Assembly: GCA_026399515.1 (NCBI GenBank)
Contig: JAPLQT010000121.1
Coordinates: 54,938 to 118,937 of the forward strand
Origin: Pseudomonadota bacterium
Lineage (GTDB): Bacteria; Pseudomonadota; Gammaproteobacteria; Burkholderiales; Rhodocyclaceae
Direction of reading: 5' to 3'
Length of the DNA: 64,000 nt
Below are positions 5,925 through 55,351 of the stretch, one piece after another. Below the pieces are notes generated by a model. That model had not been told where the DNA came from. It saw only the letters and a list, made by a program, of their open reading frames with translations, and made no database searches. The position numbers and the translations under genes were made by a program. How positions within the stretch are numbered: the stretch's first letter is position 1; each line of letters starts with the position of its first letter.

Positions 5925-6818
5925 CTACATCAGTTCGACCACTGCTTCTGTTTGCGCGCGACGGGCGAGGAAGCCTTCGAGCGCGAATATGAATAATGCC
6001 GTCCAGATGATGCCGAAGCCGATCAGCTTGTCCATGGCGAAAGGCTCATGGTAGATCAGGATGGCGACCAGGAATTGCAGCGTCGGGGCGATGTATTGCA
6101 GCACGCCCAGCAGCGCCAGCGGTATGCGTTGCGCCGCCGCGGCGAACAACAGCAGTGGAATCGCAGTCACCACGCCACAACCGATCAGCAGCGTGTCGAT
6201 CAGCGCGCCGGCATGGAGGAAGGCGCCCTGGCCGTTGGCATCGAGAGTGAACAGATACGCCAGCGCCGGCAGCAGCAGGATGCCCGTCTCCAGCGTCAGG
6301 CCATGCAGGGCGCCCAACGGAGAGGTTTTCTTGATGAGTCCGTAGAGCGCGAACGAGAATGCCAGTGCCAGGGCGATCCAGGGCAGGGAGCCGTGGGCGA
6401 TGGTCAGGTAGACCACGCCCAGTATCGCCAGCGACACCGACACCCACTGCCAGGAACGCAGCTTCTCGTGCAACAGCAGGACGCCCATCAGCACGCTGAT
6501 CAGGGGATTGATGAAATAGCCCAGGCTGGCTTCGAGGATGAAGCCGCTGTTCACCGCCCAGACATAGACCAGCCAATTGACGCTGATCAGCACCGCGGCC
6601 AGCAGATAGGCGCGGATCACCTTGAGTTTCAACGCCTGTTCGCAGAAGGCCGGCCACTGCCGCGTCACCACGATCACCGCGCCGAGCATCAGGCAGGACC
6701 AGACGATCCGATGGCCGATCAACTCCAGCGCCGGAACCTGGGCGAGCCATTTGAAATATACCGGGAACCCGCCCCACAGCGTGTAGGCGGCGACGGCGCT
6801 CCAGATGCCCCGGTTCAT
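5925..6818 (-). CDS. rarD: EamA/RarD family transporter (10 TM)
   Basis: 297-aa polytopic ORF. The N-terminus GIWSAVAAYTLWGGFPVYFK is typical of RarD. Its ATG overlaps the stop of the upstream MATE gene (ATGA). Confidence 0.75.
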   Translation of the reverse strand: MNRGIWSAVAAYTLWGGFPVYFKWLAQVPALELIGHRIVWSCLMLGAVIVVTRQWPAFCEQALKLKVIRAYLLAAVLISVNWLVYVWAVNSGFILEASLGYFINPLISVLMGVLLLHEKLRSWQWVSVSLAILGVVYLTIAHGSLPWIALALAFSFALYGLIKKTSPLGALHGLTLETGILLLPALAYLFTLDANGQGAFLHAGALIDTLLIGCGVVTAIPLLLFAAAAQRIPLALLGVLQYIAPTLQFLVAILIYHEPFAMDKLIGFGIIWTALFIFALEGFLARRAQTEAVVELM

Positions 6819-36945: not shown

Positions 36946-37260
36946 GGTGTGTGCCTTGTCATGGGGGGAGTATGACGGACAAGAGTATCACAGACGTCAA
37001 ATATTCTCACATGGAGATGATTTTTCGCACTGCCCGTCCCGGCTGCGACTCCCACCGTGCATGATCATCGAGGCATAAAGGTTCCGCCGAGTTCCGATAC
37101 GCATAGGTACATAGTTGCGTGCCTAAAATGTCCTGATAATTACGTATCGCATGGATTAGAACTAATTAGATAAAAAAGGCTGCCGCTGGCAGGGCAGACC
37201 GAGAAATCCAAGTGTTACCACTGTTCCGGTCTCGATCAGTCTTCAAGGGGGAGATGAGCG

Positions 37261-38202
37261 ATGGGACTTACGGCTTTCATCGACGTAGCGATCGGCCTCA
37301 TAGTGATCTATCTAGGCGCCAGCCTGATGATTACGGTGTTCAACGAGTGGCTGTCCCAAGTCAAGGAATGGCGACAGCAAGTGCTCGCCAAATCGCTTGA
37401 ACAACTTTTCAACGGCCAAGGGTTCGCCCAAGCGCTCGAAAAATTGCCTGGACTCCCGCTCCTGAGCGATCTCCTCAAGACTCAGCGCAGCCAAGCCGAC
37501 CCTATCCTGTTGGCGCGAGGCGTCGCTGCCGCCCTCAGCGACGGCGCCGCCGAGGGCAAGGCAACGCTCGAAGCGGTGCGCGCCGGTCTCCGGCATCTGC
37601 CTGAGTCCCAGGCCAAACAAACTCTTACGGCTCTCGCCGCGACCTGTGCCGACGACCTGGAACGTTTTGTCCGAGAAGCTGGCGCCTCGATCGACCATGC
37701 CCTGACCAACCTCGGGCAGACCTACCGAAACCGCATGCAACTGGTCAGCTTTCTGCTCGGCCTGACCATCTCGATCGCCTTCAACATCGACACCCTGCAC
37801 TTGGTCGACCGCCTTTACACCGACAAGGCCTTGCGCAACCAAGCCGTGGCCATGGCCGAGGGTCTTGCGACCATGACCAAAGCGGAACAACTACAGGACT
37901 GCGCCGCAGAATGGGGCAAGGATCCCAAGTCGGTAAGCCAGGGCTGCACTCCGGTTGCCCGGCTCCTCGACGCCACCATCGCACTCCGGCAGCCCGGCCA
38001 GGCTGCCCTGCCGATCGGCTGGGGCGAAGGCCGTCGACACACGCCCGACACCGCTACTGCCGCCATGCTGAGCCTCCTCGGCTGGTTGATCACCGCCGTC
38101 GCGATCTCCTTCGGCGCCCCGTTCTGGTTCGATCTTCTCGGTAAACTGCTGAGCCTGCGTCGCGGCTTCGCCGCCGCGCCACCGTCAAACTCCAACCCTT
38201 AG
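37261..38202 (+). CDS. Hypothetical membrane protein (N-terminal TM, central TM, C-terminal TM)
   Basis: 313-aa ORF with ATG preceded by GGGGGAGA. Hydrophobic segments are FIDVAIGLIVIYLGASLMITVF, LVSFLLGLTISIAF and MLSLLGWLITAVAISFGAPFWF. No family recognised. It is the first gene after an AT-rich gap. Confidence 0.55.
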   Translation: MGLTAFIDVAIGLIVIYLGASLMITVFNEWLSQVKEWRQQVLAKSLEQLFNGQGFAQALEKLPGLPLLSDLLKTQRSQADPILLARGVAAALSDGAAEGKATLEAVRAGLRHLPESQAKQTLTALAATCADDLERFVREAGASIDHALTNLGQTYRNRMQLVSFLLGLTISIAFNIDTLHLVDRLYTDKALRNQAVAMAEGLATMTKAEQLQDCAAEWGKDPKSVSQGCTPVARLLDATIALRQPGQAALPIGWGEGRRHTPDTATAAMLSLLGWLITAVAISFGAPFWFDLLGKLLSLRRGFAAAPPSNSNP

Positions 38203-38230
38203 CGCCTTGATGAATCTGCCCGGGATATTC

Positions 38231-38587
38231 ATGCGCGCTCGGTTACTTCTCCCTGCCATGGTCGCAGGTTTCGTCGCGGCTTGTACGACGGTGACCATCG
38301 TTGATCGGGAGGGCACGACGAAAGTCTCGCGGCATTTCGGCTTCGTTGGCATCGAACTCAGCCCGCAAACCGATGCGGTGGTGGCCGAAGTCACCAGTCT
38401 CGGCTACCACGGTGGTCCACTGGGGCTCAGCCTGGGTGTCAATCACACGGCCATCGCTGCAACTGCGCGGAATTGCCGTCTCATTGTCTGGCTGCGTAGC
38501 GGTAAAGACGCCGCGCAACTGGATCAACTGCTCGGAAAAACCCCGGGCTTATGCATCGTCAATCCCATCTTGGAGGAAAAACCATGA
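38231..38587 (+). CDS. Hypothetical lipoprotein
   Basis: MRARLLLPAMVAGFVAAC has a lipobox (VAAC). The start could also be at 38207 or 38210. The stop overlaps the next start (ATGA at 38584-38587). Confidence 0.55.
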   Translation: MRARLLLPAMVAGFVAACTTVTIVDREGTTKVSRHFGFVGIELSPQTDAVVAEVTSLGYHGGPLGLSLGVNHTAIAATARNCRLIVWLRSGKDAAQLDQLLGKTPGLCIVNPILEEKP

Positions 38588-39069
38588 ACAAGACCGTACT
38601 CGCAAGCGTTGCGATGATCATCCTGGGCGGATGCGCGGAAATACCGAAGAACATGCCGCTGGTGTTCGGCGAGTCGATCACCGTCGGCATCGGCATCGGT
38701 AGCTCGGCCGCGGATCAGGGCATGGACTTCACGCTGGGCGTCAAGACCAGGGATATTGCGGTGATTCCCGTTGTCGCCTACGACAAGGACGGTCAGCGGG
38801 TGGCGATCTACGCGGAAGTTACCGAGACCACTACCGGGACCGAGTCTTCCGAAACGCAAGGCGACAGGAAGATCGTCACCAAGAATCCGGAGACCAAAGT
38901 CGTCAACAAGGACTCGTATTCTGTGCTCGGCCAGTTCGGCAGTACGACCGATGTCAGTACCAAACGCGTGGGCCTGGGCAAGTTCTTCGCTACCGGCGCC
39001 GCGGCCCAGCAATTGTCTGAAGGATTCGCCGAATGCCTGAAGAAGGATAACTGCGGTTCGACCCGGTAA
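38584..39069 (+). CDS. Hypothetical lipoprotein
   Basis: MNKTVLASVAMIILGGC has a lipobox (LGGC). Thr/Ser/Lys-rich mature part. Translationally coupled to the preceding lipoprotein gene. Confidence 0.6.
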   Translation: MNKTVLASVAMIILGGCAEIPKNMPLVFGESITVGIGIGSSAADQGMDFTLGVKTRDIAVIPVVAYDKDGQRVAIYAEVTETTTGTESSETQGDRKIVTKNPETKVVNKDSYSVLGQFGSTTDVSTKRVGLGKFFATGAAAQQLSEGFAECLKKDNCGSTR

Positions 39070-39149
39070 GTAAGGGTCGGCAGTATAAGCCGAGCCATTA
39101 TTTCGCCTTATAAACCACCGACGCCCACCTTTGCTTGCGAGGAGCCGCC

Positions 39150-39980
39150 ATGGCCACCAGACCTGTTCGCCCGATACATCCTATCCCTCCCATCCATCCC
39201 ATCCTTCCACTTTCCGTCGCGCGGAGCGATAGCTTCGTCGCGACGCTCGATCCCGGAGCCACGGCGACGGGCGACGCCATCGTCGCCCTCGCCAGCCGGC
39301 ATATCGGCGAGGCCTATGTCCTCGGCGCGCGCGCGCCGATGGCCAACGTGGATTGGAAAGGCCCCTGGGACTGTGCCGAGTTCGCTTCCTGGTGCGTGTA
39401 TCAGGCCACCGGCCTGCTCTTCGGCGTCGAACCGCGCCACGACCCGATGCGCGCCGACGCCTACACCGGTTACTGGGCGACGCAGGCGCGAGAAGCCGGC
39501 GCCATGGTCGACGTCGACAAGGCGGCCGGCATCGCCGGCGCGCTGCTGCTGCGCGAACCGCAATCGGGGCGCGTCGGCCACATCGTCATTTCCAATGGCA
39601 AGGGCGGCACTGTCGAGGCCCACAGTTCCAACGACGGCGTCATCGCCGGCATAGTGGACGGCCGCCGCTGGGACTGCGGCATCCTGGTGCCCGGCGTGCG
39701 CTATTTCGCCAGCGCGGCGCCCGTCGCCGTCAAGCCGCCGCCGGCCGGCATGCTGCGCCTGACCGACCCGATGCTGCGCGGTGAGGAGATCGGTCGGTTA
39801 CAGGATTGTCTGGCTGCGCTCGGCTTCAACCCGGGCACGCAGGACGGCGTTTATGGCCCGCAAACCGAAGCCGCTGTCGCCGCCTTCCAGGCCGCCAACG
39901 GCCTGGTCGTGGACGGCGAATACGGTGCCGGCACGCGCAAGGCGCTACGAGCCATGCCAGGCTGTCGCAACAAGCTCTGA
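39150..39980 (+). CDS. Cell-wall hydrolase: NlpC/P60- or CHAP-like cysteine peptidase domain plus C-terminal PG_binding_1 domain, with no signal peptide
   Basis: ATG preceded by GAGGAG. Putative catalytic Cys in GPWDCAEFASWCVY and His in GRVGHIVISNG..VEAHS. C-terminus GEEIGRLQDCLAALGFNPGTQDGVYGPQTEAAVAAFQAANGLVVDGEYG is the classic peptidoglycan-binding repeat. The N-terminus carries a PIHPIPPIHPILP micro-repeat and no hydrophobic leader. Confidence 0.7.
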   Translation: MATRPVRPIHPIPPIHPILPLSVARSDSFVATLDPGATATGDAIVALASRHIGEAYVLGARAPMANVDWKGPWDCAEFASWCVYQATGLLFGVEPRHDPMRADAYTGYWATQAREAGAMVDVDKAAGIAGALLLREPQSGRVGHIVISNGKGGTVEAHSSNDGVIAGIVDGRRWDCGILVPGVRYFASAAPVAVKPPPAGMLRLTDPMLRGEEIGRLQDCLAALGFNPGTQDGVYGPQTEAAVAAFQAANGLVVDGEYGAGTRKALRAMPGCRNKL

Positions 39981-40057
39981 AAAGGCTCGATCTGTGCGCC
40001 GGGCGCCGAATCGCGCCCTGAATGAATGCTTCCGCAATTGCCGAGAAAGGATAGTCC

Positions 40058-42753
40058 ATGAATTCCGCACTTGAGCCGGATAGCTTGCGCATCAAACAAG
40101 CCAGCGAAGCAGTGAACCGCTTGGTGGCTGCCGACCCGCCTCCAGGCCTCGACAGTATCCATGAGGCTGCCCTTGAGTGTTTTGAAGCCGGCGCGCCAGC
40201 GGAGGCGAGCAAGCTGCTGGCGCATTTCGCCGGCCACGGAATTCTCGCGCCGACAATCACCAAGACAGCGTGGTTCATCCGCTTCCAGTCGTGGCTGGAC
40301 GCAGCCAAAGCCGAGGACCTGCTGGCCGAAAAACCACAGTTCACGGCCGGCGATACGAAGACCATCCTGTCCTTGGCCAAGCGCCTCAGGAATGCTTCGC
40401 AGTTCGGGCTATCGCGGCGGCTCTTGGCGCGGCTTGCCGGCGAACGCGAAGACCTGCTCGCAGAGCCAGCCGCCGATGCGGAAGCACAAACGACCTTCGC
40501 CATTCTCCTCCTTGAGAAGTACACCAAAGTCATTCAGGATCTTTCACTAAGCACTTACAAGGACCTGGATCTTCACCCGGCGCGTTCGCTGGCAGAGGCC
40601 GAGCGCCTGCTGGGCAAGATCGGCCTGCGCAAAGAAACATGCGCCGACCCGGAGACACTGGGCCAGGGCGGCGCCGTCTTCAAGCGGCGCTGGGAACTGA
40701 CAGGGCGCCTGGAGCACTTGCAGCAGTCCCTCGCTTTCTACCGCCGGGGATGGGAAGCAAGGAAATCGGATAACACCCGTTGGGACGAAGATGCCTATTG
40801 CGGCGGCAACGCCGCGTTCGTCCTGGACCTGCTGGCGCAACGGATCGATGGCCTGGATGCGGACCAGGCGAGCACCTGGCGTAATGAAGCCAAGACGATC
40901 CGCGAAACCTATGTCGCAGAACTGGAGTCGCGGAAAAGCGATAGCAAGTGGTATTTTGCCAGCCTTGCCGACGGCCACTTCGCACTCGACAACTACACCC
41001 AGGCCGGGCAGTACTACGCTGCGGCAAGCCAAGCCATGGAGGGCGACTGGGAACGTAAGACCATGTTCCTCCAGGCGGTGCAGTTGGCGGGCGCCCGAGG
41101 CATTCCGCTGACCGATCCGAAAGTATTGGCCGCCATCCAGCCGATCCTTGGCGAGAGAACCGCCGCCGCGCTAGCCGGCTTCCGGCCCAAGACCGGCCTG
41201 GCGCTGTCCGGCGGCGGATTCCGCGCCGCCTTCTATCATCTCGGCGTGCTGGCGCGGCTCGCCGACATCGACGCACTGCGCCATATCGAGACGATCTCGA
41301 CGGTATCCGGCGGCAGCATCGTCGGCACCCATTATTTTCTCAAGCTCAAAGCCCTGATCGAAAAGAAGGGCGACGATGTCGCGAAAGAAGACTACCGGCA
41401 ACTGGTACGCGAACTGATCGACCAGTTTCGCGCAGGGGTGGCGACCAATTTGCGCATGCGCGCATTCGTCTCCCTGCGCGCACTGTGGCGGATGCTGTTT
41501 CGCCTCGATTACAACCGTACACTGCGGCTGGGCGAACTCTATGACAGCACTTTTTACGCCCGCATCCTGGACAAGACCGCGACGACCCTGCGCGACCTGA
41601 TCGTTTCGCCCACGGGCGCGACGCGCGCCTTCAGCCCGCGACAGGACAATTGGCTGCGCCGCGCTCAGGTGCCGATACTGCTCATCAACGCCACCAGGCC
41701 TCGTCCGCTGTGCCGGGCCTGTTCAACCCGGTTCCACTGGCTGGCCTCTATGCCGAGCGCGATGTGCAGCTCGCTGACGGCGGCGTCTATGACAACCAGG
41801 GTGTGGATACGCTGTTACAGGAAAGCTGTTCGTTGATCCTCTGTAGCGATGCCTCCGGCCAGCTCTCCGACGATACCTCTCCCTCCACTCTGTTCCTCGG
41901 CGTGCTCCAGCGTGCCAACAACATCACCATGGAACGCGACCGCATCGTCGAGTACCAGGATCTGCGTTCTCGGCTGGAGAATCGCGCGTTAGTCGGCTTG
42001 TTGTTTGTGCACCTGCGCCAGGGCCTCGACATCCGCCGCGTGCCGCCGGAATGCGACAAGCCAAACAGCCCGCCGTCAGCCATCACAAGCCCGCCACGCA
42101 CCGATTACGGGGTGGACAAGGGCATTCAGCGCCTGCTTTCGCAGATTCGTACCGACCTGGATTCCTTCTCGGAGGTGGAGGCGGATGCCTTGATGCTGAG
42201 CGGCTACCTGGCGACGGGAAAACGGATTGGGGAATGCCAGAAGACAATGCCGCCCGGCGAGCGCTGGGGCGGATTCGACACGGGCGCCCCGATAAGCGGC
42301 GACTGGCCTTTCCAGTGGACGGAGACATACATCTGCACCACGCCCGGACCACTGGGATCGCCCAACTCCGCGCGTATCGCCGACGCAATGAACCAGCTTG
42401 AAGCATCGAGCAAGATAGTCGCAAAATACTTCTTCATGAACGTCGGCTTCGCCGCCAAGGCAGCGTTGGTAGTCGCTTCGCTGGCGGAAGTTGCGCTGCT
42501 GGCCTACGCGATTTACTGGCTGGCTATGAATGCCGCCCGCTGGCTGGCGCCTGCGCTGGTCGGCTTTGCCGTGATCAGCATATTTGTGCTGGCCGCACAC
42601 GCGAAGCAACCGAAATGGTGGCCGGTGCTCCAGCGCCTGGGCGAACTCGCAGTCGCCATCGCCGTGTGGCCAATCGCTGCGGCGGGACTCTGGATTTTCA
42701 ATCGACCTTATCTGCGGCACGGCAGCCGGGAACGGTTGGAGAGTATCAAATAG
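40058..42753 (+). pseudogene. Patatin/cPLA2-like phospholipase with helical N-terminal module and C-terminal TM anchors, split by an internal out-of-frame deletion
   Basis: ORF 40058..41836 carries the oxyanion motif LSGGGFRAAFYHLGV and the nucleophile region TVSGGSIVG, then PILLINAT. ORF 41650..42753 (other frame) continues with ASSAVPGLFNPVPL and the catalytic Asp motif LADGGVYDNQG, then three to four TM helices. The total span is 2696 nt, not a multiple of 3. The segment normally between NAT and ASSxxPG is absent (junction near 41690-41705). Confidence 0.7.
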
Positions 42754-42810
42754 AGCACGGCTAGAAAATCTAATAACGTTCTTTCACTTACCCACTCGAA
42801 GGAGAAATCC

Positions 42811-43722
42811 ATGCCCGACTATCCGCTCCGACTCTTCTCTCCCAGCGACGTCATCAACCCGCCCGACGACGGTACCATTGGGAAGTGGAAGGATTTCCCG
42901 ATCCGTTTTCTCGCTCAGGGCGACTCTTGGTTCTCCATCGGCGCCGTGCCGCCGTGGGCGACCTCGAACCTGCTCCAGCAGATCGTTCTCAGCCTGGAGG
43001 CTTGCGCGATCAACTGCGCCAACCCTGGCGCCCGGTTGGCACGGATGGTCGACTGGAAGCTCGACGCCGATTTCATGCGCTTGCTGACCGGCAAGTTCGC
43101 CTACAAGTGGGACGGTATCCTGCTCTCCGGCGGCGGCAACGATCTCATAGCGGCAGCGGGCGTATTGCCCGTCAATAGCGACGGCACGCCGGTGCCGCTG
43201 GAATCGCGCCTGCTCTTGAAGCCTGACGAATGGGGTCCGGTGGAACAGCGAGCAGCTCGCTACCTCAGCGACGCCGGCTGGAATACTTTCCGCGCCCACC
43301 TCGGGCCACAGTTTGACGACGTCGTGGCTTTCCGCGACCGGGACGTCAACCGGGACGTGCCGCTGTTCTGCCATAGCTACGCCTACCCCATGCCACGCAA
43401 TGCTCCCGCTTCAGCCTTGTTTCACGTCGGCCCGTGGTTGTATCCTTCCATGGTGGCCTACAAAATTCCGCCCGCCGATTGGCTGGGCGTCGCCACGGCT
43501 TTGATTGACCGCTTGGCGGCCTTGCTCAAGGACATCGTCGCAAAGCACAACATCGCCGGCCGGCGCGTATACCTGATCGAGACCCAAGCGAAACTCACGC
43601 CGGCCCAGGCCGGTACCACAGACCGCAGCAACGACTGGGAAAATGAGATACACCCGGCGCCCGGCGGCTACCAGAAACTGGCAGACCTGTGGCGGCCGGT
43701 GATCGAGGCGCAGGTTCCGTAG
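42811..43722 (+). CDS. SGNH/GDSL-type hydrolase (lipase/esterase)
   Basis: 303-aa ORF with ATG preceded by AAGGAGA. Block I FLAQGDSWFS, block III LLSGGGNDL and block V NEIHPAPGGYQKLA (Asn where the canonical Asp of DxxH sits). No signal peptide. Confidence 0.65.
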   Translation: MPDYPLRLFSPSDVINPPDDGTIGKWKDFPIRFLAQGDSWFSIGAVPPWATSNLLQQIVLSLEACAINCANPGARLARMVDWKLDADFMRLLTGKFAYKWDGILLSGGGNDLIAAAGVLPVNSDGTPVPLESRLLLKPDEWGPVEQRAARYLSDAGWNTFRAHLGPQFDDVVAFRDRDVNRDVPLFCHSYAYPMPRNAPASALFHVGPWLYPSMVAYKIPPADWLGVATALIDRLAALLKDIVAKHNIAGRRVYLIETQAKLTPAQAGTTDRSNDWENEIHPAPGGYQKLADLWRPVIEAQVP

Positions 43723-43843
43723 CCAAGCCCGGATGGAGTATGGGTAGGCTAATCGCGGCTCGCCACCCTCAGCACGTGGGTACCTCACCATCTCGCTTGG
43801 ACTCGCTTCTTCGTATCGAACCGCATGTCTGTCATCCACCGTA

Positions 43844-43853
43844 TCGATATCGA
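43844..43853. promoter_or_regulatory. 10-bp perfect palindrome TCGATATCGA within a duplicated CGTATCGA context, upstream of the TIR operon
   Basis: It lies 71-80 nt upstream of the first possible start (43924) in a 200-nt intergenic gap. cgtatcga recurs at about 43812 and 43840. Confidence 0.3.
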
Positions 43854-43923
43854 ATAGGGAGTGGCATGTCGCGAACACAAGTGTTTTTCAGGTATGCTCA
43901 CGGGCCGCGATGGGCTCTGAATT

Positions 43924-45273
43924 TTGTCCACTAACCGACCGGTTCCACTCGTGAATCCGCTTTGTTTCATCCTCATGCCCTTCGGTCGCAAACCCACTGG
44001 CGATGGCCGGGTGGTGGACTTCGATGCGATCTATGAACACGTCATCAAGCCCGCAGTTGTTGCGGCCGGCCTGGAGCCACTGCGCGCCGACGAGGAGATC
44101 GCCGGCGGGGTGATCCACAAGGCGATGTTCGAGCGGCTGATCCTCTGCGAGTATGCCATCGCCGACCTCACTACGGCCAATGCCAATGTCTTCTACGAAT
44201 TGGGCTTGCGCCATGCGGTGCGGTCCTCGGCGACCCAGTTGATCTTCGCCGAGGGCTGGGGGCAGTTGCCGTTCGACGTGACGCTGTTGCGGGCGCTGCC
44301 CTACCGGCTGGGGCCGGACGGCACGCCGACCGATGTGGCAACCGCCAGCGCCGCCCTGGCAGGCAAGCTGCGCGCGGCGCGGCAGGCACTGCCCGACAGC
44401 CCGGTGTTCCAGATGGTCGAGGGCTTTCCGGACATCCAGCGGCTGAAGACCGATGTCTTCCGCGAGCGGGTGCGTTATGCGGAAGACATGAAGGCGCGGC
44501 TGGCGGCGGCGCGGCGAGCTGGCGTCGGTGCGGTGGCGGCGATGGAGGCGGACTTGGGCGACATCGGCCACGCCGATGCGGCGGTGGTGATCGATCTTTT
44601 TCTCTCATACCGTGCGGTGAAGGCCTGGCAGGCGATGGTTGATCTGGCCGGCCGCATGGCGCCGCCGCTGGCCGCGACAGTGATGGTGCGGGAGCAGTTG
44701 GGACTGGCGCTGAACCGGGCCGGGCGCGGCGAGGAGGCGGAAGCGGTGCTGCTGACGCTGATCGCCGAGCGCGGCGCCAGCAGCGAGACCTGCGGCATCC
44801 TCGGCCGCGTCTATAAGGATCGCTGTGAGACCGCTTCGCAACGAGGCGAAACCTCCTTGGCGCGCGGCCTGCTGGAAAAGGCTATCGGCGCCTATTTGAA
44901 AGGCTTCGAGGCCGACTGGCGCGACGCCTATCCGGGTGTGAATGCCGTTACGCTGATGGAATTGAAGGAACCGCCGGACCCACGCCAAGGCGCGCTGCTG
45001 CCGGTGGTGATCTATGCAGTGGGACGGCGCATCGCCGCCGGCCAGCCGGATTACTGGGACTATGCGTCACGTATGGAACTGGCGGTGCTGGCACGCGATC
45101 AGGCCGGTGCCGAGGAGGCACTCGCCGATGCACTCGCGCATGTGCGCGAAGCGTGGGAGCCGGAAACCACGGCGCGCAATCTGCGGCTAATCCTCGCTGC
45201 CAGAACGCAGCGGGGCGAACAAACCGAGTGGATACGCCAGATCGTGGCAACGCTGGAAAATAGGGCGCACTGA
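43924..45273 (+). CDS. DUF4071 / MAP3K-TRAF-binding-domain-like protein: N-terminal TIR/nucleoside-2-deoxyribosyltransferase-like Rossmannoid module plus helical-repeat (TPR-like) region
   Basis: 449-aa ORF. CFILMPFGRKP...VDFDAIYEHVIKPAVVAAGLEPLRADEEI..GVIHKAMFERLILCEYAIADLTTANANVFYELGLRHA matches my memory of the bacterial DUF4071 N-terminal pattern. Later ETCGILGRVYKDR...AIGAYLKGFEADWRDAYPGVNAVTL matches its helical part. The start is TTG at 43924 or GTG at 43951. Confidence 0.6.
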   Translation: MSTNRPVPLVNPLCFILMPFGRKPTGDGRVVDFDAIYEHVIKPAVVAAGLEPLRADEEIAGGVIHKAMFERLILCEYAIADLTTANANVFYELGLRHAVRSSATQLIFAEGWGQLPFDVTLLRALPYRLGPDGTPTDVATASAALAGKLRAARQALPDSPVFQMVEGFPDIQRLKTDVFRERVRYAEDMKARLAAARRAGVGAVAAMEADLGDIGHADAAVVIDLFLSYRAVKAWQAMVDLAGRMAPPLAATVMVREQLGLALNRAGRGEEAEAVLLTLIAERGASSETCGILGRVYKDRCETASQRGETSLARGLLEKAIGAYLKGFEADWRDAYPGVNAVTLMELKEPPDPRQGALLPVVIYAVGRRIAAGQPDYWDYASRMELAVLARDQAGAEEALADALAHVREAWEPETTARNLRLILAARTQRGEQTEWIRQIVATLENRAH

Positions 45274-45327
45274 GCTGCCGGGTAGCCGCATAGTGCGTGG
45301 TACTTGGAGTCGGGAGGGATATAGGTC

Positions 45328-46020
45328 ATGAAAATATTCTTGGCGTTTTCATTCCGCGACGAGGACAAGCTTTTGGCAAGCCAAGTAGAGAGACTGCTGG
45401 CCAGCCAGTTCGTCCAGTTGCAAACCGGTGAGCAACTCGGCGGCGCGCTACTTACCGACGCGGTTAAAAAGCGGATCGAGGACAGTGACGCCCTGATTGC
45501 CTTGTTGACTCGGCGGGAACAACTTGCGGCAGGTGGCTGGACAACCCACCCGTGGGTGCAGGATGAATTGACCTGCGCACGCACCAAGGGCAAGCTCGCC
45601 ATCGCCCTCGTCGAGGAAGGCGTTGACGCCGCAGGCATGTTCGCGCCCCATGAACATATTCCGCTGAGCCGGACCAACCCTGTGGAAGCGCTACTGCGTC
45701 TTGCGGAAACCGTGGCGGAGTGGAATGGCGACCGGGGTCGAATGATCAAGGTTCGACTCACCCCGGAAGACATTGCCGAGAAGCTTGGACAAGATAGCGT
45801 CCCTTGTCGTCACCGCTTTGTGAAACAGGGCAAGCCGACTTCATGGCGCGAGGCAATGCCTTTCACCGAACCAGGCGGAACCTTCGTCTGGGTGGACGGC
45901 ATTCAGGATGAACACCTTATCCAGGTTAAGGCTGATCAATCCGGGCAGACTTGGCAATCGTTCGTCACCCCCCAATGGGTGCAAGTGCAGTTGAAGAAAA
46001 CGGGAGGTATCGTCCCATGA
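45328..46020 (+). CDS. TIR-like domain protein with about 95-aa unassigned beta-rich C-terminal domain
   Basis: 230-aa ORF. MKIFLAFSFRDEDKLLASQVERLL...SDALIALLT...HPWVQDELTCARTKGKLAIALV follows the bacterial TIR_2 pattern (beta-A FxSxxxxD, then W-x-x-x-E). GGGAGGG RBS. The stop overlaps the next start. Confidence 0.6.
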   Translation: MKIFLAFSFRDEDKLLASQVERLLASQFVQLQTGEQLGGALLTDAVKKRIEDSDALIALLTRREQLAAGGWTTHPWVQDELTCARTKGKLAIALVEEGVDAAGMFAPHEHIPLSRTNPVEALLRLAETVAEWNGDRGRMIKVRLTPEDIAEKLGQDSVPCRHRFVKQGKPTSWREAMPFTEPGGTFVWVDGIQDEHLIQVKADQSGQTWQSFVTPQWVQVQLKKTGGIVP

Positions 46021-46817
46021 GCATTCGAATCGAGCAGAACAGCAGCTACACGGGTAACCAGCGGTGGGATTGGGAGGTGTGGCTTGCCGGTCCGATAGAC
46101 GAGCTGGACCAGATCGAGCATGTGACTTATACGCTGCATCCGACATTCAGCGAGCCAGTGCGGGAAATAAGCTCCCGCGAGAATGGCTTCCGCCTGAAAT
46201 CCGATGGCTGGGGCGAGTTCACCCTGTACATCGACATCGCCCGCAAGGATGGTGGTCATGAGGAACTGAGCCATGAGTTGAAATTGGCCCCTCAGCCGAA
46301 AGATCCTCCCGCAATACTCGGATTCGAGGTGGACATGGATCATTTGCTTGTCATGGGAGATGACCTTCTAAGGGACGCAGCGCCGGTAATCAAGCGAGCA
46401 GGAAAGGCAATGATCGACGTGGCCGTCGCGAAGATCGCTGAACACCTGCCCACCACGACGGTTTTTGTTTCAGGCGGAGTTGCCGACGCCGATGCGGTCA
46501 GCCGCCTGAAAACATCCCTTGGCCATCTGAAAGTGAATATCCTCAGCGACGACGAGGTTCCTGCCGGCGTTCCATACCAGGCGCACATCGCCAACCTGAT
46601 CGGCCAGGCGGATGTTGCGACCTTCCTCGTTTCCGGACGCCCCAGTCGCTGGATGACCCAGGAGATCGAAGTTGCCCAACGCCACGGAAAGCGCATCGTG
46701 CCCGTGTTGGTAGGCAAAGACAGCGTGTTGCCGGAAGCATTGCGGGGCATGGCAAGTGTCCGCATCGAAAATCTGGACAGCGTTGCCGAGTTGACGAAAA
46801 ATATATTGGGCAAGTGA
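46017..46817 (+). CDS. Prokaryotic YEATS (pYEATS)-like domain fused to a C-terminal TIR-like domain
   Basis: I placed the start at the ATG giving MSIRIEQNSSY (ATGA overlap with the upstream stop). YTGNQRWDWEVWLAGPIDELDQIEHVTYTLHPTFSEPVREI...GFRLKSDGWGEFTLYIDI matches my memory of the pYEATS family. The C-terminus VFVSGGVADADAVSRLKTSL...ADVATFLVSGRPSRWMTQEIEVAQRHGKRIVPVLV is TIR_2-like. Confidence 0.65.
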   Translation: MSIRIEQNSSYTGNQRWDWEVWLAGPIDELDQIEHVTYTLHPTFSEPVREISSRENGFRLKSDGWGEFTLYIDIARKDGGHEELSHELKLAPQPKDPPAILGFEVDMDHLLVMGDDLLRDAAPVIKRAGKAMIDVAVAKIAEHLPTTTVFVSGGVADADAVSRLKTSLGHLKVNILSDDEVPAGVPYQAHIANLIGQADVATFLVSGRPSRWMTQEIEVAQRHGKRIVPVLVGKDSVLPEALRGMASVRIENLDSVAELTKNILGK

Positions 46818-47074
46818 CGCACCGCGTCGTGGGGCTGACCTGACTCCTGGAATGGAGATGCGGCTCGGCAAGCACTCTTTCCCGTTGTCCACATGCGGTG
46901 GCATCTTCAGAACACACTCGTTCGGGAAGATGCAAGTGCTCTGCACTCGGGGCGTTCACGAAAACGGGCATCTCCAATTTTGCGTCCACTGTCCGCCAGA
47001 CGACAGTGAAACGTCGTCGAGGCGACTAGGATACCGACCATAAAAAGACTTTGTTGTCCTTAATGGGAGGTTTC

Positions 47075-50771: not shown

Positions 50772-51932
50772 TCAAAGAACATTCGGCATTCTGCACAGAT
50801 TGCCCGCGGGGAAGGCCGTGATTCCCTCGGCCAGCGGCCACGGCGGCTCGCTGCCGTGGCAGACGACGTACAGGTGATCGAGCTTGAGCACCTCGCGTGC
50901 CGAGCGCATGGATGGCGTGACTGCCGGAGAGCGGGTCAGCTTGACTTCGAAGCCGATGCGTTCCGTCCCGCGCAGAATCAGCAGATCCAGCTCGCCGCCG
51001 GTATGCACGCCCCAGAACCAAGCACCATCGCGCCCAACGCCGGAACGGCGGGCAAGTTCGAGGACGATCAGTCCCTCCCAGGAGGCGCCGCACTTTGGAT
51101 GGGCGCGCAGGGCATCCTGGCTGCCGATACCGAGCAGGCTGTGCAGCAGTCCGGTATCGGCGATGTAAACCTTGGGCGCCTTGATCTCCCGTTTGCCGAC
51201 ATTGGCATGCCACGGCCGCAGGCGGCGAACCAGGAAGGTGCCTTCCAGCACATCCAGCCAGCGCGACACGGTCTTGTCGGTGACGCCCAGCGAACGGGCA
51301 AGCTCGCTGCCATTCCAGGTTTGCCCGTGGTAGTGGGCGAGCATGGTCCAGAAGCGACGCATGGTCGCCGCCGGCAGCGCAAACCCGAGTTGCGCCAGAT
51401 CGCGCTCGAGATAGGTGCGGATCAGCGCGGCGCGCCATTCGGCGCTGGCCGTATCGGTCGCGGCCAACAAGGCGCGCGGAAAGCCGCCGCGCAACCAGCG
51501 CGTGTCGATGTCGCCGACGCCAATCTCGTCCAGGCCAAAGCCTTCGAGCTCGTGAAAACCAATCCTGCCGGCCAGCGACTCGGAGGCGTGGCGCATCAGT
51601 TCCGGCGATGCGCTGCCGAGTATCAGGAAACGCGCCGGACTATCGGGGCGATCCGCCAGCACCCGCAGCAGCGGAAACAGATCTGACCGCCACTGGATCT
51701 CGTCAAGTACCACCAGGCCGCGCAGCGGACGCAGGGCGAACGAGGGGTCGGCCAGTCGCGCCAGATGGTCCGGATCTTCCAGATCGAACAGTGTGCACGG
51801 CCCGTCCCAGACGGCGGATAACTGCCGCGCCAGCGTGGTCTTGCCCACCTGGCGCGGACCGAGCAAGGCCACCACGGGGAAGTCGGTGAGCCGACGGCGC
51901 AGGCGATCGAGATGCGAGGAGCGGGAATCCAT
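50772..51932 (-). CDS. AAA-type ATPase with C-terminal DUF4143 domain
   Basis: 386-aa ORF with Walker A LLGPRQVGKTTLA, Walker B-like LVVLDEIQ, and the typical size and layout of the widespread ATPase-DUF4143 family. Confidence 0.7.
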   Translation of the reverse strand: MDSRSSHLDRLRRRLTDFPVVALLGPRQVGKTTLARQLSAVWDGPCTLFDLEDPDHLARLADPSFALRPLRGLVVLDEIQWRSDLFPLLRVLADRPDSPARFLILGSASPELMRHASESLAGRIGFHELEGFGLDEIGVGDIDTRWLRGGFPRALLAATDTASAEWRAALIRTYLERDLAQLGFALPAATMRRFWTMLAHYHGQTWNGSELARSLGVTDKTVSRWLDVLEGTFLVRRLRPWHANVGKREIKAPKVYIADTGLLHSLLGIGSQDALRAHPKCGASWEGLIVLELARRSGVGRDGAWFWGVHTGGELDLLILRGTERIGFEVKLTRSPAVTPSMRSAREVLKLDHLYVVCHGSEPPWPLAEGITAFPAGNLCRMPNVL

Positions 51933-52163
51933 GGCTGGATACTACCATGAATATTCGGAATACGACTCCGACTTTTCACTGACTATCTGTCAGCGCCAGA
52001 ACCCCGGCTTGCGGCTCGGCGGTGTCAATCCCGGATACGGCAGGACAAGCAGTGTGCGGTCAACAATCCATGCAAATCGAGCGGTGACCGCTCAATTTGC
52101 ACGGGCGATACCGGATCGCCGTCCCACCAGCGCCGTTCCAGGGGATATCGCTTCGCATAACTC

Positions 52164-55100
52164 TTACATGCTGCGTCGGTACTGCCCGCCGACCTCGAAC
52201 AACGCGCTGCTGATCTGTCCTAGCGAGCAGATGCGCACCGCATCGACCAGCACCTCGAAAACGTTGCCGTCGGCGATCACCGTCTGCTTCAGGCGTTGCA
52301 GCATCGCTGCGGACTGCGGCGCATTTCTGGCCAGAAATGCGCCGCAGTCCCGAACGTGCCAACTCGATCTCGATCTGCGCGTCTCCCTTGGGATTGCGGA
52401 AAGTGTTCACGCCGATGATGGGGTAGGAACCGTCGTGCTTCTTGTGCTCGTAGTAGAGCGACTCTTCCTGGATCTTGCCGCGCTGGTAGCCGGTTTCCAT
52501 GGCGCCCAGGACCCCGCCGCGGGCGGCGATGGCCTCGAACTCCTTGAGCACGGCCTCTTCGACGAGGTCGGTCAGCTCGTCGATGATGAAGGCGCCCTGG
52601 TTCGGATTCTCGTTCTTGGCCAGGCCCCATTCGCGGTTGATCACCAGTTGGATGGCCATGGCGCGGCGCACCGATTCGTCGGTCGGGGTGGTGATGGCCT
52701 CGTCGTAGGCGTTGGTGTGCAGGCTGTTGCAGTTGTCGTAGATGGCGATCAGCGCCTGCAGCGTGGTGCGGATATCGTTGAAGGCCATCTCCTGCGCGTG
52801 CAGGCTGCGGCCGCTGGTCTGGATGTGGTACTTGAGCTTCTGGCTACGCTCGTTGGCGCCGTAGCGGTTCTTCATCGCTACCGCCCAGATGCGCCGGGCG
52901 ACGCGGCCGATCACCGTGTATTCGGGGTCCATGCATGCCGCGCGCCAGATAGGCTTCGACATAGGTAAAGCCGTTGGCAAGCGTAAAGGCGAGCTGCGAG
53001 ATCGGGTTGGCGCCGGCCTCGGCGATATGGTAGCCGGAGATCGATACCGAGTAGAAATTCTTGATGTCGTGGTTGACGAAATACTGCTGGATGTCGCCCA
53101 TCATCTTCAGCGCGAATTCCGTCGAGAAGATGCAGGTGTTCTGCCCCTGGTCTTCCTTGAGAATGTCGGCCTGGACCGTGCCGCGTACCGAGGATAGCGT
53201 CCATTCCTTGATCTTTTCGGCTTCGTCCTCGGTCGGATCGCGGCCGTTGTCGCTCTTGAACTTGTCGAACTGCTGCTCGATGGCGGTGTTGAAGAACATC
53301 GCCAGGATCATCGGCGCCGGGCCGTTGATGGTCATCGACACCGAGGTGGTCGGCGCGCACAGGTCGAAGCCCGAGTAGAGCACTTGCATGTCGTCCAGGG
53401 TGGCGATGGAAACGCCGGAGTTGCCGACCTTGCCGTAGATGTCCGGACGCTCGTCCGGATCGAAGCCGTACAGCGTCACCGAGTCGAAGGCGGTGGACAG
53501 GCGCTTGGCCGGCAAACCTTCTGAGACGCGCTTGAAGCGGCGGTTGGTGCGGAAGGCATCGCCTTCGCCGGCGAACATGCGGGTCGGGTCTTCATTCTCG
53601 CGCTTGAAGGCGAACACCCCTGCGGTGAACGGGAAGCTGCCGGGCAGGTTCTCCTTCAGCATGAAGCGCAGCACTTCGCCTTCGTCCTCGAAGCGTGGCA
53701 GGGACACCTTGCGGATCTTGGTGCCGCACAGCGAAGTGGTAGTGAGCGCAGTGCGCATTTCCTTGTCGCGGATTTTCACCACGTATTCGTCCTGAGCGTA
53801 AAGCTCGACGGTCTTGGGCCACATCTCCAGCAGTTTCCTGCTGCGCGGGTCGAGCTGGCCGTCTTTCCATGCGATCAGTTCGTCGAAGTCCTTGGCCTCC
53901 TTGCCGCAGTCAGTGAATATCGCCTTGGACGTCTTCAGCGACTGACGCTCGCGCGCCAGCGTCGCCTGCTGCGCCGTGTGTTCATGATAGGCACGCACGG
54001 CTTCGGCGATCTCGGCCAGGTAACGGACTCGGGCGGTCGGGACGATGGCGCGCGACACCGACGACTGCCGGACGGCGACTTGCGGCAGTTTGCCGGGCTT
54101 GGTCTTGAGGCCGAGCTTCTGTAGACGCGGCAGCAGCGCTTGGTACAAGGCAGTGACGCCGTCATCGTTGAAGCGCGCCGCCATGGTGCCGAACACCGGC
54201 ATTTCCTCGGTCGCCTGGTTGAACAGCTCGCGGTTGCGCTGGTACTGCTTGCGCACGTCGCGCAAGGCATCCTCGGCGCCCTTGCGGTCGAACTTGTTGA
54301 TGGCGACGAAATCGGCGAAATCCAGCATGTCGATCTTCTCGAGCTGGCTCGCCGCGCCGAATTCCGGGGTCATGACATACAGGGAGACGCCGACCAGCGG
54401 CACGATCGCCGCATTGCCCTGGCCGATGCCCGAGGTCTCGATGATCACCAGGTCGAAGCCGGCCAGCTTGCAGGCGGCGATCACCTCCGGCAGCGCCACG
54501 GAAACCTCGGAGCCGGTGTCGCGGGTGGCGAGCGAACGCATGTAGATGTTGGGATGCTCGATGGCGTTCATGCGGATCCGGTCGCCCAGCAGCGCGCCGC
54601 CGGTGCGCTTGCGCGACGGGTCGATGGAAACCACGGCGATGGACAGGTTGTCCTGCTGGTCGAGGCGGAAGCGCCTCACCAGCTCGTCGGTGAGCGAGGA
54701 TTTGCCGGCGCCGCCGGTGCCGGTGATGCCCAGCGTGGGCGTGCCGAGCTTGGCGGCGGCTTCGACGATCTGCTTCTTCAAGGCTGCGGGATAGACGCCG
54801 TTCTCCAGCGCCGTGATGATCTGCGCCAGCTTGCGCCGGTCGCCGCTCTTGAGCGCCTGGAGCACTTCGCCGGGCGGCGGCACGAAGGGTGCGAGATCGA
54901 AATCGGCCTGATGCACGACATCGTTGATCATGCCTTGCAGGCCCAGCGTCTGGCCGTCCTGCGGGGAATACAGGCGGGTCACGCCGTAGTCGTGCAGTTC
55001 CTTGATCTCGGCGGGGACGATCACTCCACCGCCGCCGCCGAAGACCTTGATGTTGGCGCCGCCGTTGGCGCGCAGCAGGTCGAGCATGTACTTGAAGAAT

Positions 55101-55351
55101 TCGAGGTGGCCGCCTTGATAGGAAGTGATGGCGATGCCCTGGACATCTTCCTGCAAGGCCGCATTGACGATCTCGCCGACCGAGCGGTTGTGGCCGAGGT
55201 GGATCACCTCGGCGCCGGTGGCCTGCATGATACGGCGCATGATGTTGATCGAGGCGTCATGACCGTCGAACAGCGCGGCCGCGGTAACGAAGCGGACTTT
55301 TTGCTTCGGCTTGTAGGTGCTTAGCTTGGCGCTTACGCTCAGATCCGTCAT
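52164..55351 (-). pseudogene. icmF: Fused isobutyryl-CoA mutase IcmF (B12 domain - MeaB-like GTPase - mutase barrel) interrupted by two frame-breaking lesions
   Basis: ORF 52844..55351 has the N-terminus [24 protein letters not shown] (B12), GTGGAGKSS (G-protein) and the mutase barrel up to [14 protein letters not shown] 52060..52980 (second frame) resumes at [20 protein letters not shown]... and runs to [10 protein letters not shown] third frame ending at TAA 52164 gives [55 protein letters not shown]. The span is 3188 nt, not a multiple of 3. Confidence 0.75.
52311..52350. repeat. Perfect 40-bp palindrome at the second icmF lesion
   Basis: ggactgcggcgcatttctgg|ccagaaatgcgccgcagtcc. The half at 52311-52330 is native coding sequence (ARNAPQS). 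The half at 52331-52350 is its inverted copy, replacing the expected codons after IELARS. Confidence 0.9.

Follow-up and report, generated by a model that had tools for sequence, protein, structure and literature searches.

Does a run of ten same-strand open reading frames (ORFs) in a Rhodocyclaceae genome encode one undescribed abortive-infection system, or does it consist of smaller units that are known from elsewhere? The question was raised by a 64,000-nt stretch of DNA (hereafter the window; positions 54,938 to 118,937 of contig JAPLQT010000121.1, GenBank assembly GCA_026399515.1), which comes from a metagenome-assembled genome (MAG). Between 37261 and 46817 its + strand carries ten ORFs, which a preliminary description, written from the letters alone, had read as a single conflict system pairing envelope-destroying enzymes with TIR-type modules. 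All ten ORFs were found, and they represent nine genes (g1 to g9, in order), because the phospholipase gene g5 is split over two ORFs. Our analysis indicated that the block is probably a composite immune locus of two modules, A (g1–g4, 37261–39980) and B (g5–g9, 40058–46817), and not one ten-gene machine. Module B is, judging from its sequence, a TIR-signalling defence system of the TPR-S or type VIII Thoeris kind, and so a variant form of systems that have already been described and, in part, validated.

The gene contents listed in the preliminary description were recovered by profile and motif searches. Module A comprises a protein with three transmembrane (TM) segments (g1), two lipoproteins (g2 and g3), and a signal-less hydrolase with NlpC/P60-like and peptidoglycan (PG)-binding domains (g4). 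Module B comprises a patatin-like phospholipase with C-terminal TM anchors (g5), an SGNH hydrolase (g6), and three proteins with TIR-like or nucleoside-2-deoxyribosyltransferase (NDT)-like Rossmannoid domains: g7 with an NDT-like domain plus TPR-S, g8 with a weak TIR_2 match, and g9 with pYEATS plus TIR_2. One identity had been missed: the helical N-terminal module of g5 is the Pfam domain TPR-S, the same domain as the C-terminal half of g7. Ten same-strand ORFs are in themselves not unusual for bacteria. The non-chance element is that sub-modules of the block recur elsewhere.

The Anchor Gene of Module B

The gene g7 (449 aa) was used as the anchor for comparing fetched loci (numbered with the prefix L). 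The protein matched MAP3K_TRAF_bd/DUF4071 (E 7e-41) and TPR-S (E 1.8e-24) in Pfam, and in an alignment profile it matched ASK1 (E 1.9e-10). The AlphaFold2 (AF2) model was built from a shallow alignment of 12 sequences and had a pLDDT of 30–50 in the N-domain, so the fold search was informative for the TPR half only. For that half, the closest Foldseek match was the ASK1 central regulatory region (PDB 5ulm; E 3.6e-6), with TM-scores of 0.48/0.54 and a root-mean-square deviation of 4.0 over 280 columns. The sole PDB sequence relatives of the N-domain were the DNPH1/Rcl N-hydrolases of the NDT superfamily. Their E-values were weak (0.15–1.2) but consistent, and the motif ADLTTANANVFYELG of g7 was aligned with AEVTQPSLGVGYELG of DNPH1/Rcl, YELG included. 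A relative reached from the N-domain at E 7e-27 matched Pfam Nuc_deoxyrib_tr (PF05014).

More than 7,000 database relatives of g7 were found, and the best 120 were 68–100% identical to it. In contigs representing one genome per species, the best 80 relatives were 56–72% identical and came from more than ten phyla, among them Proteobacteria, Nitrospirota, Acidobacteriota, Actinomycetota, Bacteroidota, Gemmatimonadota, Ignavibacteria, and Desulfobacterota. The protein was 83–86% identical to its orthologues and retained the profile-invariant residues. This conservation is unusually strong for an immune gene, and it implies wide horizontal spread under tight constraint. Homologues of g7 were also seen on plasmids of Rhizobium, Agrobacterium, Paraburkholderia, and Aliarcobacter.

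When the same-strand operon neighbours of g7 homologues (92 in all) were assigned to Pfam families, the counts were TIR_2 (13), TPR-S (12), Patatin (10), TIR (5), SLATT_3, CHAT, DUF4231, and ThsB_TIR (4 each), SLATT_1 (3), and pYEATS and nSTAND (2 each). This neighbourhood is unmistakably immune. In eight loci (L006, L017, L036, L038, L052, L075, L078, and L082), ThsB_TIR ORFs adjoining a g7 homologue were matched by published type VIII Thoeris TIR sequences (E 1e-5 to 1e-19). On the Escherichia coli IncP plasmid pKMi029_2 (L178), the gene for a "TRAFs-binding domain-containing protein" precedes a TIR gene whose product is 56% identical to the validated Yersinia ThsB, and the g7 N-domain matched the former protein at 34% identity (E 3e-24).

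Two systems studied by others bear directly on these findings. Type VIII Thoeris was validated by Yirmiya et al. (bioRxiv 10.64898/2025.12.03.692087), whose ThsB TIR protein makes canonical cyclic ADP-ribose (cADPR) on infection. The effector of that type, ThsI, is described as "CMP hydrolase and TPR", its TPR domain having been predicted by Aravind and colleagues (bioRxiv 10.64898/2025.12.03.692087). In BcTir/Tpr of Bacillus cereus, a two-gene pair of a TIR protein and a glycosidase-TPR protein provides phage defence (Liu et al., 2023, bioRxiv 10.1101/2023.05.26.542521). The assignment of module B to a described kind was based on the architecture shared by g7 and ThsI, the ThsB_TIR neighbours of g7 homologues, the likeness to L178, and BcTir/Tpr.

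The Second Effector and the TIR Partners

The second protein with a TPR-S domain, a predicted sensor of NAD+-derived signals, is encoded by the broken gene g5. It is split over the ORFs 40058–41836 (frame 1) and 41650–42753 (frame 0). An intact orthologue, a TPR-S-Patatin-TM protein of 962 aa, was found in a Sulfuritalea MAG (L082) and was 65% identical. Residues 1–554 of the orthologue aligned in one frame of g5 (67% identity), and residues 611–962 in the other (64%). The window lacks 166 nt of L082 (3223–3388), out of frame, with the loss of residues 555–610, and the junction at 41695/41698 reads ILLINAT/(Q)ASSAVPGLF. The two halves of the catalytic dyad, one on the GxSxG side and one on the DGG side, therefore lie in different frames. 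Because g5 is dead from this deletion, only the ThsI-like arm (g7) is likely to be functional.

The genes g8 and g9 are coupled by an ATGA overlap (46017–46020), and their boundaries matched the gene calls on an identical 2.2-kb Logan contig from an independent sequencing run. An exact look-up of the g8 protein found it only on this contig, and an exact look-up of the g7 protein of the window found no long contig. In Pfam, g9 matched pYEATS (E 1.2e-21), YEATS (1e-13), and TIR_2 (1.9e-9). Its PDB matches were Taf14, Yaf9, and YEATS2 (best E 1.8e-5), with the motif HPTF...GWGxF in the alignment. The TIR catalytic-type Glu motif was retained in both proteins, as WxxDEL in g8 and WMTQEI in g9. No PDB sequence match was found for g8. 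Its beta-rich C-domain (~100 aa; window 45700–46017) had neither a Pfam family nor a PDB sequence match, and it was conserved together with the trio of g7 and pYEATS genes in Nitrospira and Acidobacteriota. This domain may be a sensor.

The trio of g7, a g8-like gene, and a pYEATS(-TIR) gene recurred in Nitrospira (L006 and L016) and in Acidobacteriota (L028 and L038), and in each of these four loci the g8 homologue adjoined the anchor and pYEATS genes. In L038, the trio was found together with ThsB_TIR, TPR-S-Patatin, a second patatin, and a WD40 protein.

Conservation and History of the Locus

The preliminary description had proposed a check for the same gene set in other genomes, and in this check the ten-gene set was found in none of the 80 anchor loci and in none of the 80 loci of g1 relatives; only sub-modules recurred. 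The anchor counts exclude L001, which is the 2.2-kb contig of the window itself. Among the anchor loci, g5-like genes occurred in 16, g8 in five, g9 in four, and g1 in two. There was one match to g4, consistent with the PG-binding domain alone, and none to g2, g3, or g6.

The window and the Sulfuritalea locus L082 share their right side (window 51058–55351), which consists of an AAA_14/DUF4143-type gene and a fused B12-binding/MeaB/methylmalonyl-CoA-mutase (IcmF-type) gene. This synteny indicated that the immune locus occupies a conserved chromosomal site of the lineage. Between g7 and the AAA_14/IcmF genes, the window holds g8, g9, a transporter gene, and a sulfotransferase gene, and L082 holds none of these. 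At 6443–6612, L082 contains a 170-nt duplicate of the g7 5' end (corresponding to window 43952–44121), upstream of an inserted cassette, and at 4498–4752, after the patatin gene, it contains a 255-nt remnant of the SGNH gene 3' end (corresponding to window 43468–43722). The duplicate and the remnant are footprints of cassette insertion and deletion at an old, shuffling site.

The cassette inserted in L082 has four genes, for a TIR protein (~470 aa), a glycosylase of the HhH-GPD/Ogg type, a QueC-like enzyme, and ThsB_TIR, and it was also observed beside g7 homologues in distant bacteria. It was located at 6644–9868 in L082, at 4267–7497 in L006, and at 1438–4600 in L174 (a Rhizobium plasmid), and it was absent from the window. 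Its composition suggests a TIR system tied to 7-deazaguanine-type base chemistry.

The SGNH gene g6 has a different history. The protein had no match in Pfam, NCBIfam, PHROGs, or PADLOC. It carries the motifs of the family, and its homologues carry Lipase_GDSL (PF00657) and Lipase_GDSL_2 (PF13472). It has no signal peptide and no TPR-S or other recognisable sensor domain. In another Sulfuritalea MAG (L166/L167), an orthologue of g6 (84% identical) lies directly after a TPR-S-Patatin gene, although that patatin is only 43% identical to g5, and L166 continues with TIR_2, a TPR protein, a g7 orthologue (83%), and a DUF4062 protein. Relatives at 63–69% identity were solitary and stood among housekeeping genes (L168, L170, and L172). 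As the relatives are mostly solitary, the SGNH esterase was rejected as a core component; it is probably a lineage-restricted resident or passenger gene, although it may have been recruited.

Module A and the g1 Family

No match to g1 was found in Pfam, NCBIfam, PHROG, or PADLOC, and yet its family is large, with 17,205 cluster representatives at 50% identity among 1.84 billion. The AF2 model was confident and all-helical (pLDDT 81) and had no meaningful fold neighbour in PDB (best E 0.08, TM-score 0.16). Invariant positions in the g1 alignment were R38, Y155, N175, L185, G274, G285, and the run P-F-W-F-D (287–291) with L293.

The closest homologues of g1 (70% identity; L083/L084) overlapped by stop and start codons with a TIR_2-TPR gene. 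A homologue at 40% identity followed a patatin gene in L085, and in L024 a g1 relative lay directly upstream of a g7 homologue. The gene order in L052 was TIR_2, g1, two copies of ThsB_TIR, the g7 homologue, TPR-S-Patatin, and integrase. The presence of g1 in two of the 80 g7 loci compares with an expectation of 0.011 (Poisson P 6e-5). Three fusion proteins were also found. In P0369, a g1 domain (residues 1–317) is joined to a g4 homologue (49% identity over 231 aa, E 4e-72), beyond which lies a further C-terminal region. In P0377, g1 is fused to a chymotrypsin-fold protease (GDSGGP motif, weak PDB hits). In P0433, a Walker-A NTPase region precedes g1; it was recognised by the motif alone and had no PDB sequence match.

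Distant g1 relatives were surveyed in 80 metagenome loci. They adjoined GH25 plus PG_binding_1 (L106), Amidase_2 plus PG_binding_1 (L132), a PG_binding_1 protein (L164), and a GH24 phage-type lysozyme plus PG_binding_1 (L130 and L135), with an overlapping stop and start in L130. Three of the four PG hydrolases (L106, L130, and L132) were signal-less, and the N-terminus called in L135 belongs to an over-extended ORF. Phosphoesterases of the phospholipase C (PLC) type accounted for four Pfam-matched neighbours within a five-locus cluster (L110, L112, L122, L136, and L149), and L110 was confirmed individually. Further neighbours were TIR_2 (L116), NDT-like proteins (L111, with TPR-S, and L144), and eCIS-type genes (eCIS_core, DUF6519, and AAA).

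The lipoproteins g2 and g3, which overlap by ATGA (38584–38587), had no family match in Pfam, NCBIfam, PHROGs, or PADLOC and no homologue in ~170 related loci, from which the hydrolase gene was likewise absent. Neither lipoprotein has a C-terminal TM segment. The g4 protein matched PG_binding_1 (E 3.4e-19), with weaker matches to CHAP (2e-4) and to the NLP/P60 structure PDB 6b8c (0.013). It has neither a signal peptide nor a TM segment. Its matches to endolysin PHROGs were through the PG-binding domain only, and those in NCBIfam were PG-binding-domain matches only.

Layout, Base Composition, and Flanks

The coordinates of the genes and of the gaps at both ends of the block are given in Table 1. 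The left gap is AT-richer than the window (62.3% GC); its subsegment 37081–37200 had 46.7% GC, in agreement with the earlier hand count of about 47%. No consensus sigma-70 site was found in it, and in the scan as a whole promoter-like and terminator-like sites were at chance level (one against 2.2 expected, and 12 against 9.2 expected, respectively). Rfam gave no match in either gap, and no tRNA was found in the tRNA scan. No direct or inverted repeats that would mark an integration site flanked the block.

Table 1. Genes and bordering gaps of the block, in window coordinates.
Feature	Coordinates	Strand	Assignment	Basis or remark
Left gap	36946..37260		AT-richer non-coding gap, likely promoter region	50.2% GC
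g1	37261..38202	+	Inner-membrane protein of 313 aa with 3 TM-like segments; candidate membrane-breaching partner or effector	C-terminal motif GAPFWFDLL
g2	38210..38587	+	Small lipoprotein	Lipobox VAAC at residues 22–25; extent most likely
g3	38584..39069	+	Lipoprotein, ATGA-coupled to g2	Lipobox LGGC at residues 14–17
g4	39150..39980	+	Predicted signal-less papain-fold (NlpC/P60/CHAP-like) murein hydrolase with C-terminal PG_binding_1	Alternative start TTG 39135
g5, 5' part	40058..41695	+	Pseudogene fragment: TPR-S sensor and N-terminal patatin fold	TPR-S E 7.5e-11; Patatin profile positions 1–118 of 191
g5, 3' part	41698..42753	+	Other frame: C-terminal patatin fold and three TM-like segments	DGG motif
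g6	42811..43722	+	Predicted cytoplasmic SGNH/GDSL-type esterase	GDSW, GGGND, and ExxHP motifs
g7	43975..45273	+	ThsI-like effector: NDT/DNPH1-like (DrHyd, "CMP hydrolase") N-domain with YELG motif, then TPR-S/ASK1-type TPR	Pfam
g8	45328..46020	+	Protein of 230 aa, TIR-like N-domain and beta-rich C-domain; candidate signal-generating or sensing TIR	W-x-x-D-E-L motif
g9	46017..46817	+	pYEATS-TIR, ATGA-coupled to g8; candidate infection sensor and signal-generating TIR	Pfam
Right gap	46818..47050		Non-coding gap before the Na/sulfate-symporter-family gene	57.1% GC

The GC content of the block (62.1%) equals that of the window, so the block is not compositionally foreign, and a horizontally acquired island marked by composition was rejected. 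Within the block, g8 and g9 had 57% GC and a GC content at third codon positions (GC3) of 0.65–0.68, compared with 0.75–0.82 in the other genes; GC3 was also low in g2 (0.64). The lower GC of g8 and g9 may reflect a more recent acquisition of the TIR pair. The flanking genes were as first described and were identified in Pfam: a prolyl-oligopeptidase-family S9 peptidase (Peptidase_S9_N plus Peptidase_S9) on the - strand to the left, and a transporter (Na_sulph_symp/CitMHS) to the right. The other window genes that were examined are housekeeping genes (UvrD, DnaG, IcmF-type mutase, and AMP-binding enzymes).

Comparison with Known Systems

The claim that no characterised system has this composition was not true of the core, which corresponds to the ThsI/ThsB pair of type VIII Thoeris and to BcTir/Tpr. 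Like ThsI, g7 has a CMP-hydrolase/NDT-superfamily domain fused to TPR-S, and TIR genes lie in the same operon, both of them after g7. Homologues of g7 elsewhere adjoin ThsB_TIR genes homologous to validated ThsBs. A second effector also occurs in that type, as ThsH beside ThsI in the published work and as DUF4231 in L174 and L178. There are also differences. The g8 and pYEATS-TIR proteins fall outside the validated ThsB cluster, the second effector of the window is a broken TPR-S-patatin-3TM protein, and the identity of g7 to the plasmid ThsI-type protein is restricted to the N-domain. Module B is special in having two TPR-S effectors in one locus, TIRs outside the ThsB_TIR cluster, and the conserved trio described above. 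The only patatin kind tried by Yirmiya et al., SLOG-patatin, gave no defence (bioRxiv 10.64898/2025.12.03.692087).

BcTir/Tpr resembles module B in that its "core Tpr architecture" is that of g7. It differs in that Tpr acts as the NADase, in its occurrence in Firmicutes, and in having no patatin, pYEATS, or membrane components. According to Liu et al., 78 operons taken from Burroughs and Aravind (2020) included 29 with solitary Tpr, 28 with Tir-Tpr, and four with Patatin-Tpr, besides others (bioRxiv 10.1101/2023.05.26.542521).

All domains of module B belong to the TPR-S network of Burroughs and Aravind (2020): TPR-S fused to DrHyd or patatin, TIR, and pYEATS (PF20308/PF20305). The window likewise has TPR-S fused to variable effectors, namely the patatin of g5 and the NDT-like domain of g7, and g7 homologues stand in a TIR-rich neighbourhood. 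The article of Burroughs and Aravind (J Bacteriol, 2020) reportedly also describes prokaryotic YEATS domains. TIR/TPR-S signalling modules and a link to the ASK signalosome were reportedly predicted there by computation. TPR-S and pYEATS are not mentioned in the eLife 2020 paper on conflict systems or in the lipocone paper.

The cyclic-oligonucleotide-based anti-phage signalling system (CBASS) with CapV is similar in that a nucleotide-activated patatin phospholipase serves as the membrane-destroying suicide effector. In the window, however, the sensor domain is TPR-S and not a CapV-type nucleotide-binding site. CBASS was rejected, as neither PADLOC nor Pfam detected a CD-NTase/SMODS cyclase in the ten ORFs. 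Type I Thoeris was also rejected, as there was no ThsA-type match (SIR2 or TM plus SLOG) in PADLOC or Pfam and only a weak ThsB match (E 0.0011).

Module A resembles phage holin-endolysin-spanin cassettes and type 10 secretion in its order of a multi-TM protein, lipoproteins, and a signal-less PG hydrolase with PG_binding_1, the catalytic part of g4 being a papain-fold amidase domain. The pairing of the g1 family with hydrolases of interchangeable catalytic type is a further likeness. In contrast to phage lysis cassettes, g1 is a protein of 313 aa with invariant polar residues and no holin-family match, and its family is nearly absent from viral contigs. No recognised holin or spanin was found among g1–g3, which had no PHROG or Pfam match, and there was no type II i-spanin. 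The context was not that of a prophage or tailocin, given the flanking peptidase and transporter genes, the housekeeping genes, and the lack of repeats and tRNA.

Proposed Mechanism and Alternative Explanations

By analogy with the established work on type VIII Thoeris and BcTir/Tpr, module B may run from TIR proteins through an ADP-ribose-type messenger and TPR-S to execution by NDT-like and patatin domains. Infection would be sensed by the TIR proteins g9, with its reader-type pYEATS domain, and g8. These would turn NAD+ into a messenger of the cyclic ADP-ribose type, which the TPR-S domains of the two effectors may bind. The NDT/"CMP-hydrolase" enzyme of g7 would then deplete the nucleotide or NAD+ pool, and an intact g5, as a membrane-anchored patatin phospholipase, would break down the inner membrane. 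Module A may be an envelope-lysis-type unit, in which g4 depends on g1 as an endolysin does on a holin, or in which g1 tethers g4. A membrane-breaching g1 would give g4 access to murein, and g2 and g3 may act as outer-membrane or spanin-like helpers or as inhibitors of g4. The g1 family recurs as a neighbour or fusion partner of TIR, NDT-TPR-S, patatin, protease, and NTPase modules, and for this reason the immune locus may plausibly have in module A an additional effector arm for suicide lysis. It is plausible that the two modules work together.

The pairing of g1 with interchangeable signal-less wall hydrolases follows, by analogy, a holin or gate logic, and its linkage with TIR, NDT, protease, and NTPase modules, as a neighbour or within one protein, fits that of immune effector domains. 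We tentatively propose, as a possibility that is somewhat unlikely, that the family is an undescribed and widespread membrane-breaching effector or gate. Its partners would be envelope hydrolases that lack signal peptides (four types of murein hydrolase, PLC-type phosphoesterases, and patatins) in some cases and immune sensors (TIR, NDT-TPR-S, and STAND-like NTPase) in others, and in this locus it would add killing by cell-wall lysis to a Thoeris-type system. Caution on any reading of g1 is advised by its invariant polar residues, its size, and its near absence from viral contigs.

A number of findings weigh against the two-module immune reading as a whole. PADLOC 2.0, another of the checks proposed beforehand, returned two weak TIR matches and no named system for the ten ORFs. 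The TIR_2 match of g8 (E 9.8e-4) was under the Pfam cutoff, and at E 1e-3 the TIRs of the window gave no match to the ThsB sequences published for type VIII. The g7 homologue had no same-strand neighbour within 250 nt in 17 of 74 loci, and solitary, g7-like Tpr genes made up 29 of the 78 operons in the count of Liu et al. Among the ~170 related loci, g2, g3, and g4 were never found beside TIR, TPR-S, or g7 genes, and within the available DNA of the closest relatives of the locus (L082 and L166) none of g1–g4 was found. Two weak terminator-like hairpins (39077–39093 and 43902–43917) could divide the block into three transcripts; the total count of such sites was at chance level. For g1, the invariant polar residues R38, Y155, N175, and D291 would suit an enzyme better than a holin, the distant relatives had very mixed neighbours that included housekeeping genes, and the family was detected in two of 2.9 million viral contigs, both at uninformative loci. 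Since the window stems from a MAG, the deletion in g5 could in principle be an assembly artefact.

The original proposal, in which all ten ORFs form one integrated undescribed abortive-infection system and the TIR trio signals to the murein hydrolase, the phospholipase, and the SGNH esterase, has some merit. The genes are tightly spaced and co-directional behind one AT-rich gap. Members of the g1 family repeatedly adjoin TIR, NDT-TPR-S, and patatin genes, and the patatin and SGNH genes are also neighbours in L166/L167, while L082 retains a remnant of this arrangement. The immune nature of the DNA and the coupling of TIR to patatin stood up to the analysis. The ten-gene unit did not, being absent from all anchor and g1 loci; g4 and the SGNH protein have no TPR-S or other recognisable ligand-sensor domain, the SGNH relatives are solitary in housekeeping contexts, and type VIII Thoeris and TPR-S systems, as already described, cover the core. 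We regard this proposal as improbable. A separation of module A from immunity is harder to dismiss. In that case the module would be a stand-alone cassette for lysis or secretion (holin-endolysin or type-10-secretion kind), or a set in which lipoproteins confer immunity to an amidase effector, and its place next to a defence module would be incidental. The Tae/Tai proteins of the type VI secretion system (T6SS) are effector-immunity pairs, and lipoproteins beside a signal-less papain-fold amidase may be likened to them. The neighbours of g1 relatives, which include eCIS-type genes as well as PG hydrolases of four catalytic types that lack signal peptides, agree with such a cassette, as do the fusion of g1 to a g4 homologue (P0369) and the absence of g2–g4 from every TIR/TPR-S locus examined. 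Yet neither prophage genes nor genes for a T6SS or for secretion substrates were among the flanking genes examined, PHROGs yielded no match to a holin or spanin, there was no i-spanin-type TM protein, and the closest g1 homologues are translationally coupled to a TIR-TPR gene and not to a hydrolase. We hold this separation to be a substantial possibility that falls short of probable.

Within module B, the flow of the signal may be the reverse of that set out above, with the NDT-like domain of g7 acting as the NADase, depleting NAD+ and producing a cADPR isomer, and with the TIRs as sensors or regulators in a complex. In the Bacillus pair, NADase and cADPR-isomer activity was found in BcTpr, not BcTir, and the two proteins form a complex (bioRxiv 10.1101/2023.05.26.542521). 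The frequent solitary occurrence of g7 homologues fits a self-contained sensor-effector, and the high identity of g7 across many phyla points the same way. Against this, TIR proteins alone gave phage-dependent cADPR, and added cADPR was toxic only to cells bearing type VIII (bioRxiv 10.64898/2025.12.03.692087); g8 and g9 also keep the TIR catalytic-type Glu motif. We consider the reversed flow unlikely. Decay of the whole locus to a remnant with no present function would agree with the frameshifting deletion in the patatin effector and with the gene remnants in the related L082 (the SGNH 3' end and the duplicated g7 5' end). The other eight genes have intact reading frames, however, g7 keeps its invariant residues and its high identity to orthologues, and the identical 2.2-kb stretch was recovered in the independent sequencing run. 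We regard such decay as improbable. The composite locus of a TIR/TPR-S defence module beside a putative envelope-lysis unit remains the preferred and probable explanation.

Implications

Beside a ThsI-like effector of a just-validated kind, the locus offers a TPR-S-patatin-TM effector, a pYEATS-TIR sensor, and a conserved TIR partner of 230 aa, all of which are predicted components for which no test was found in the literature. With members in more than ten phyla and a relationship to ASK1, the g7 family offers a good starting point for studying how the animal ASK signalosome originated in bacteria. The g1 family is the more original lead, as a large unnamed family of membrane proteins through which immune sensors are connected with signal-less hydrolases of the cell wall and of lipids. 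Lysis through a g1 gate, if true, would be an effector route not yet described for Thoeris. If the family is a controlled membrane-breaching device, it would represent a new effector class in bacterial immunity, and possibly in lysis-dependent release systems.

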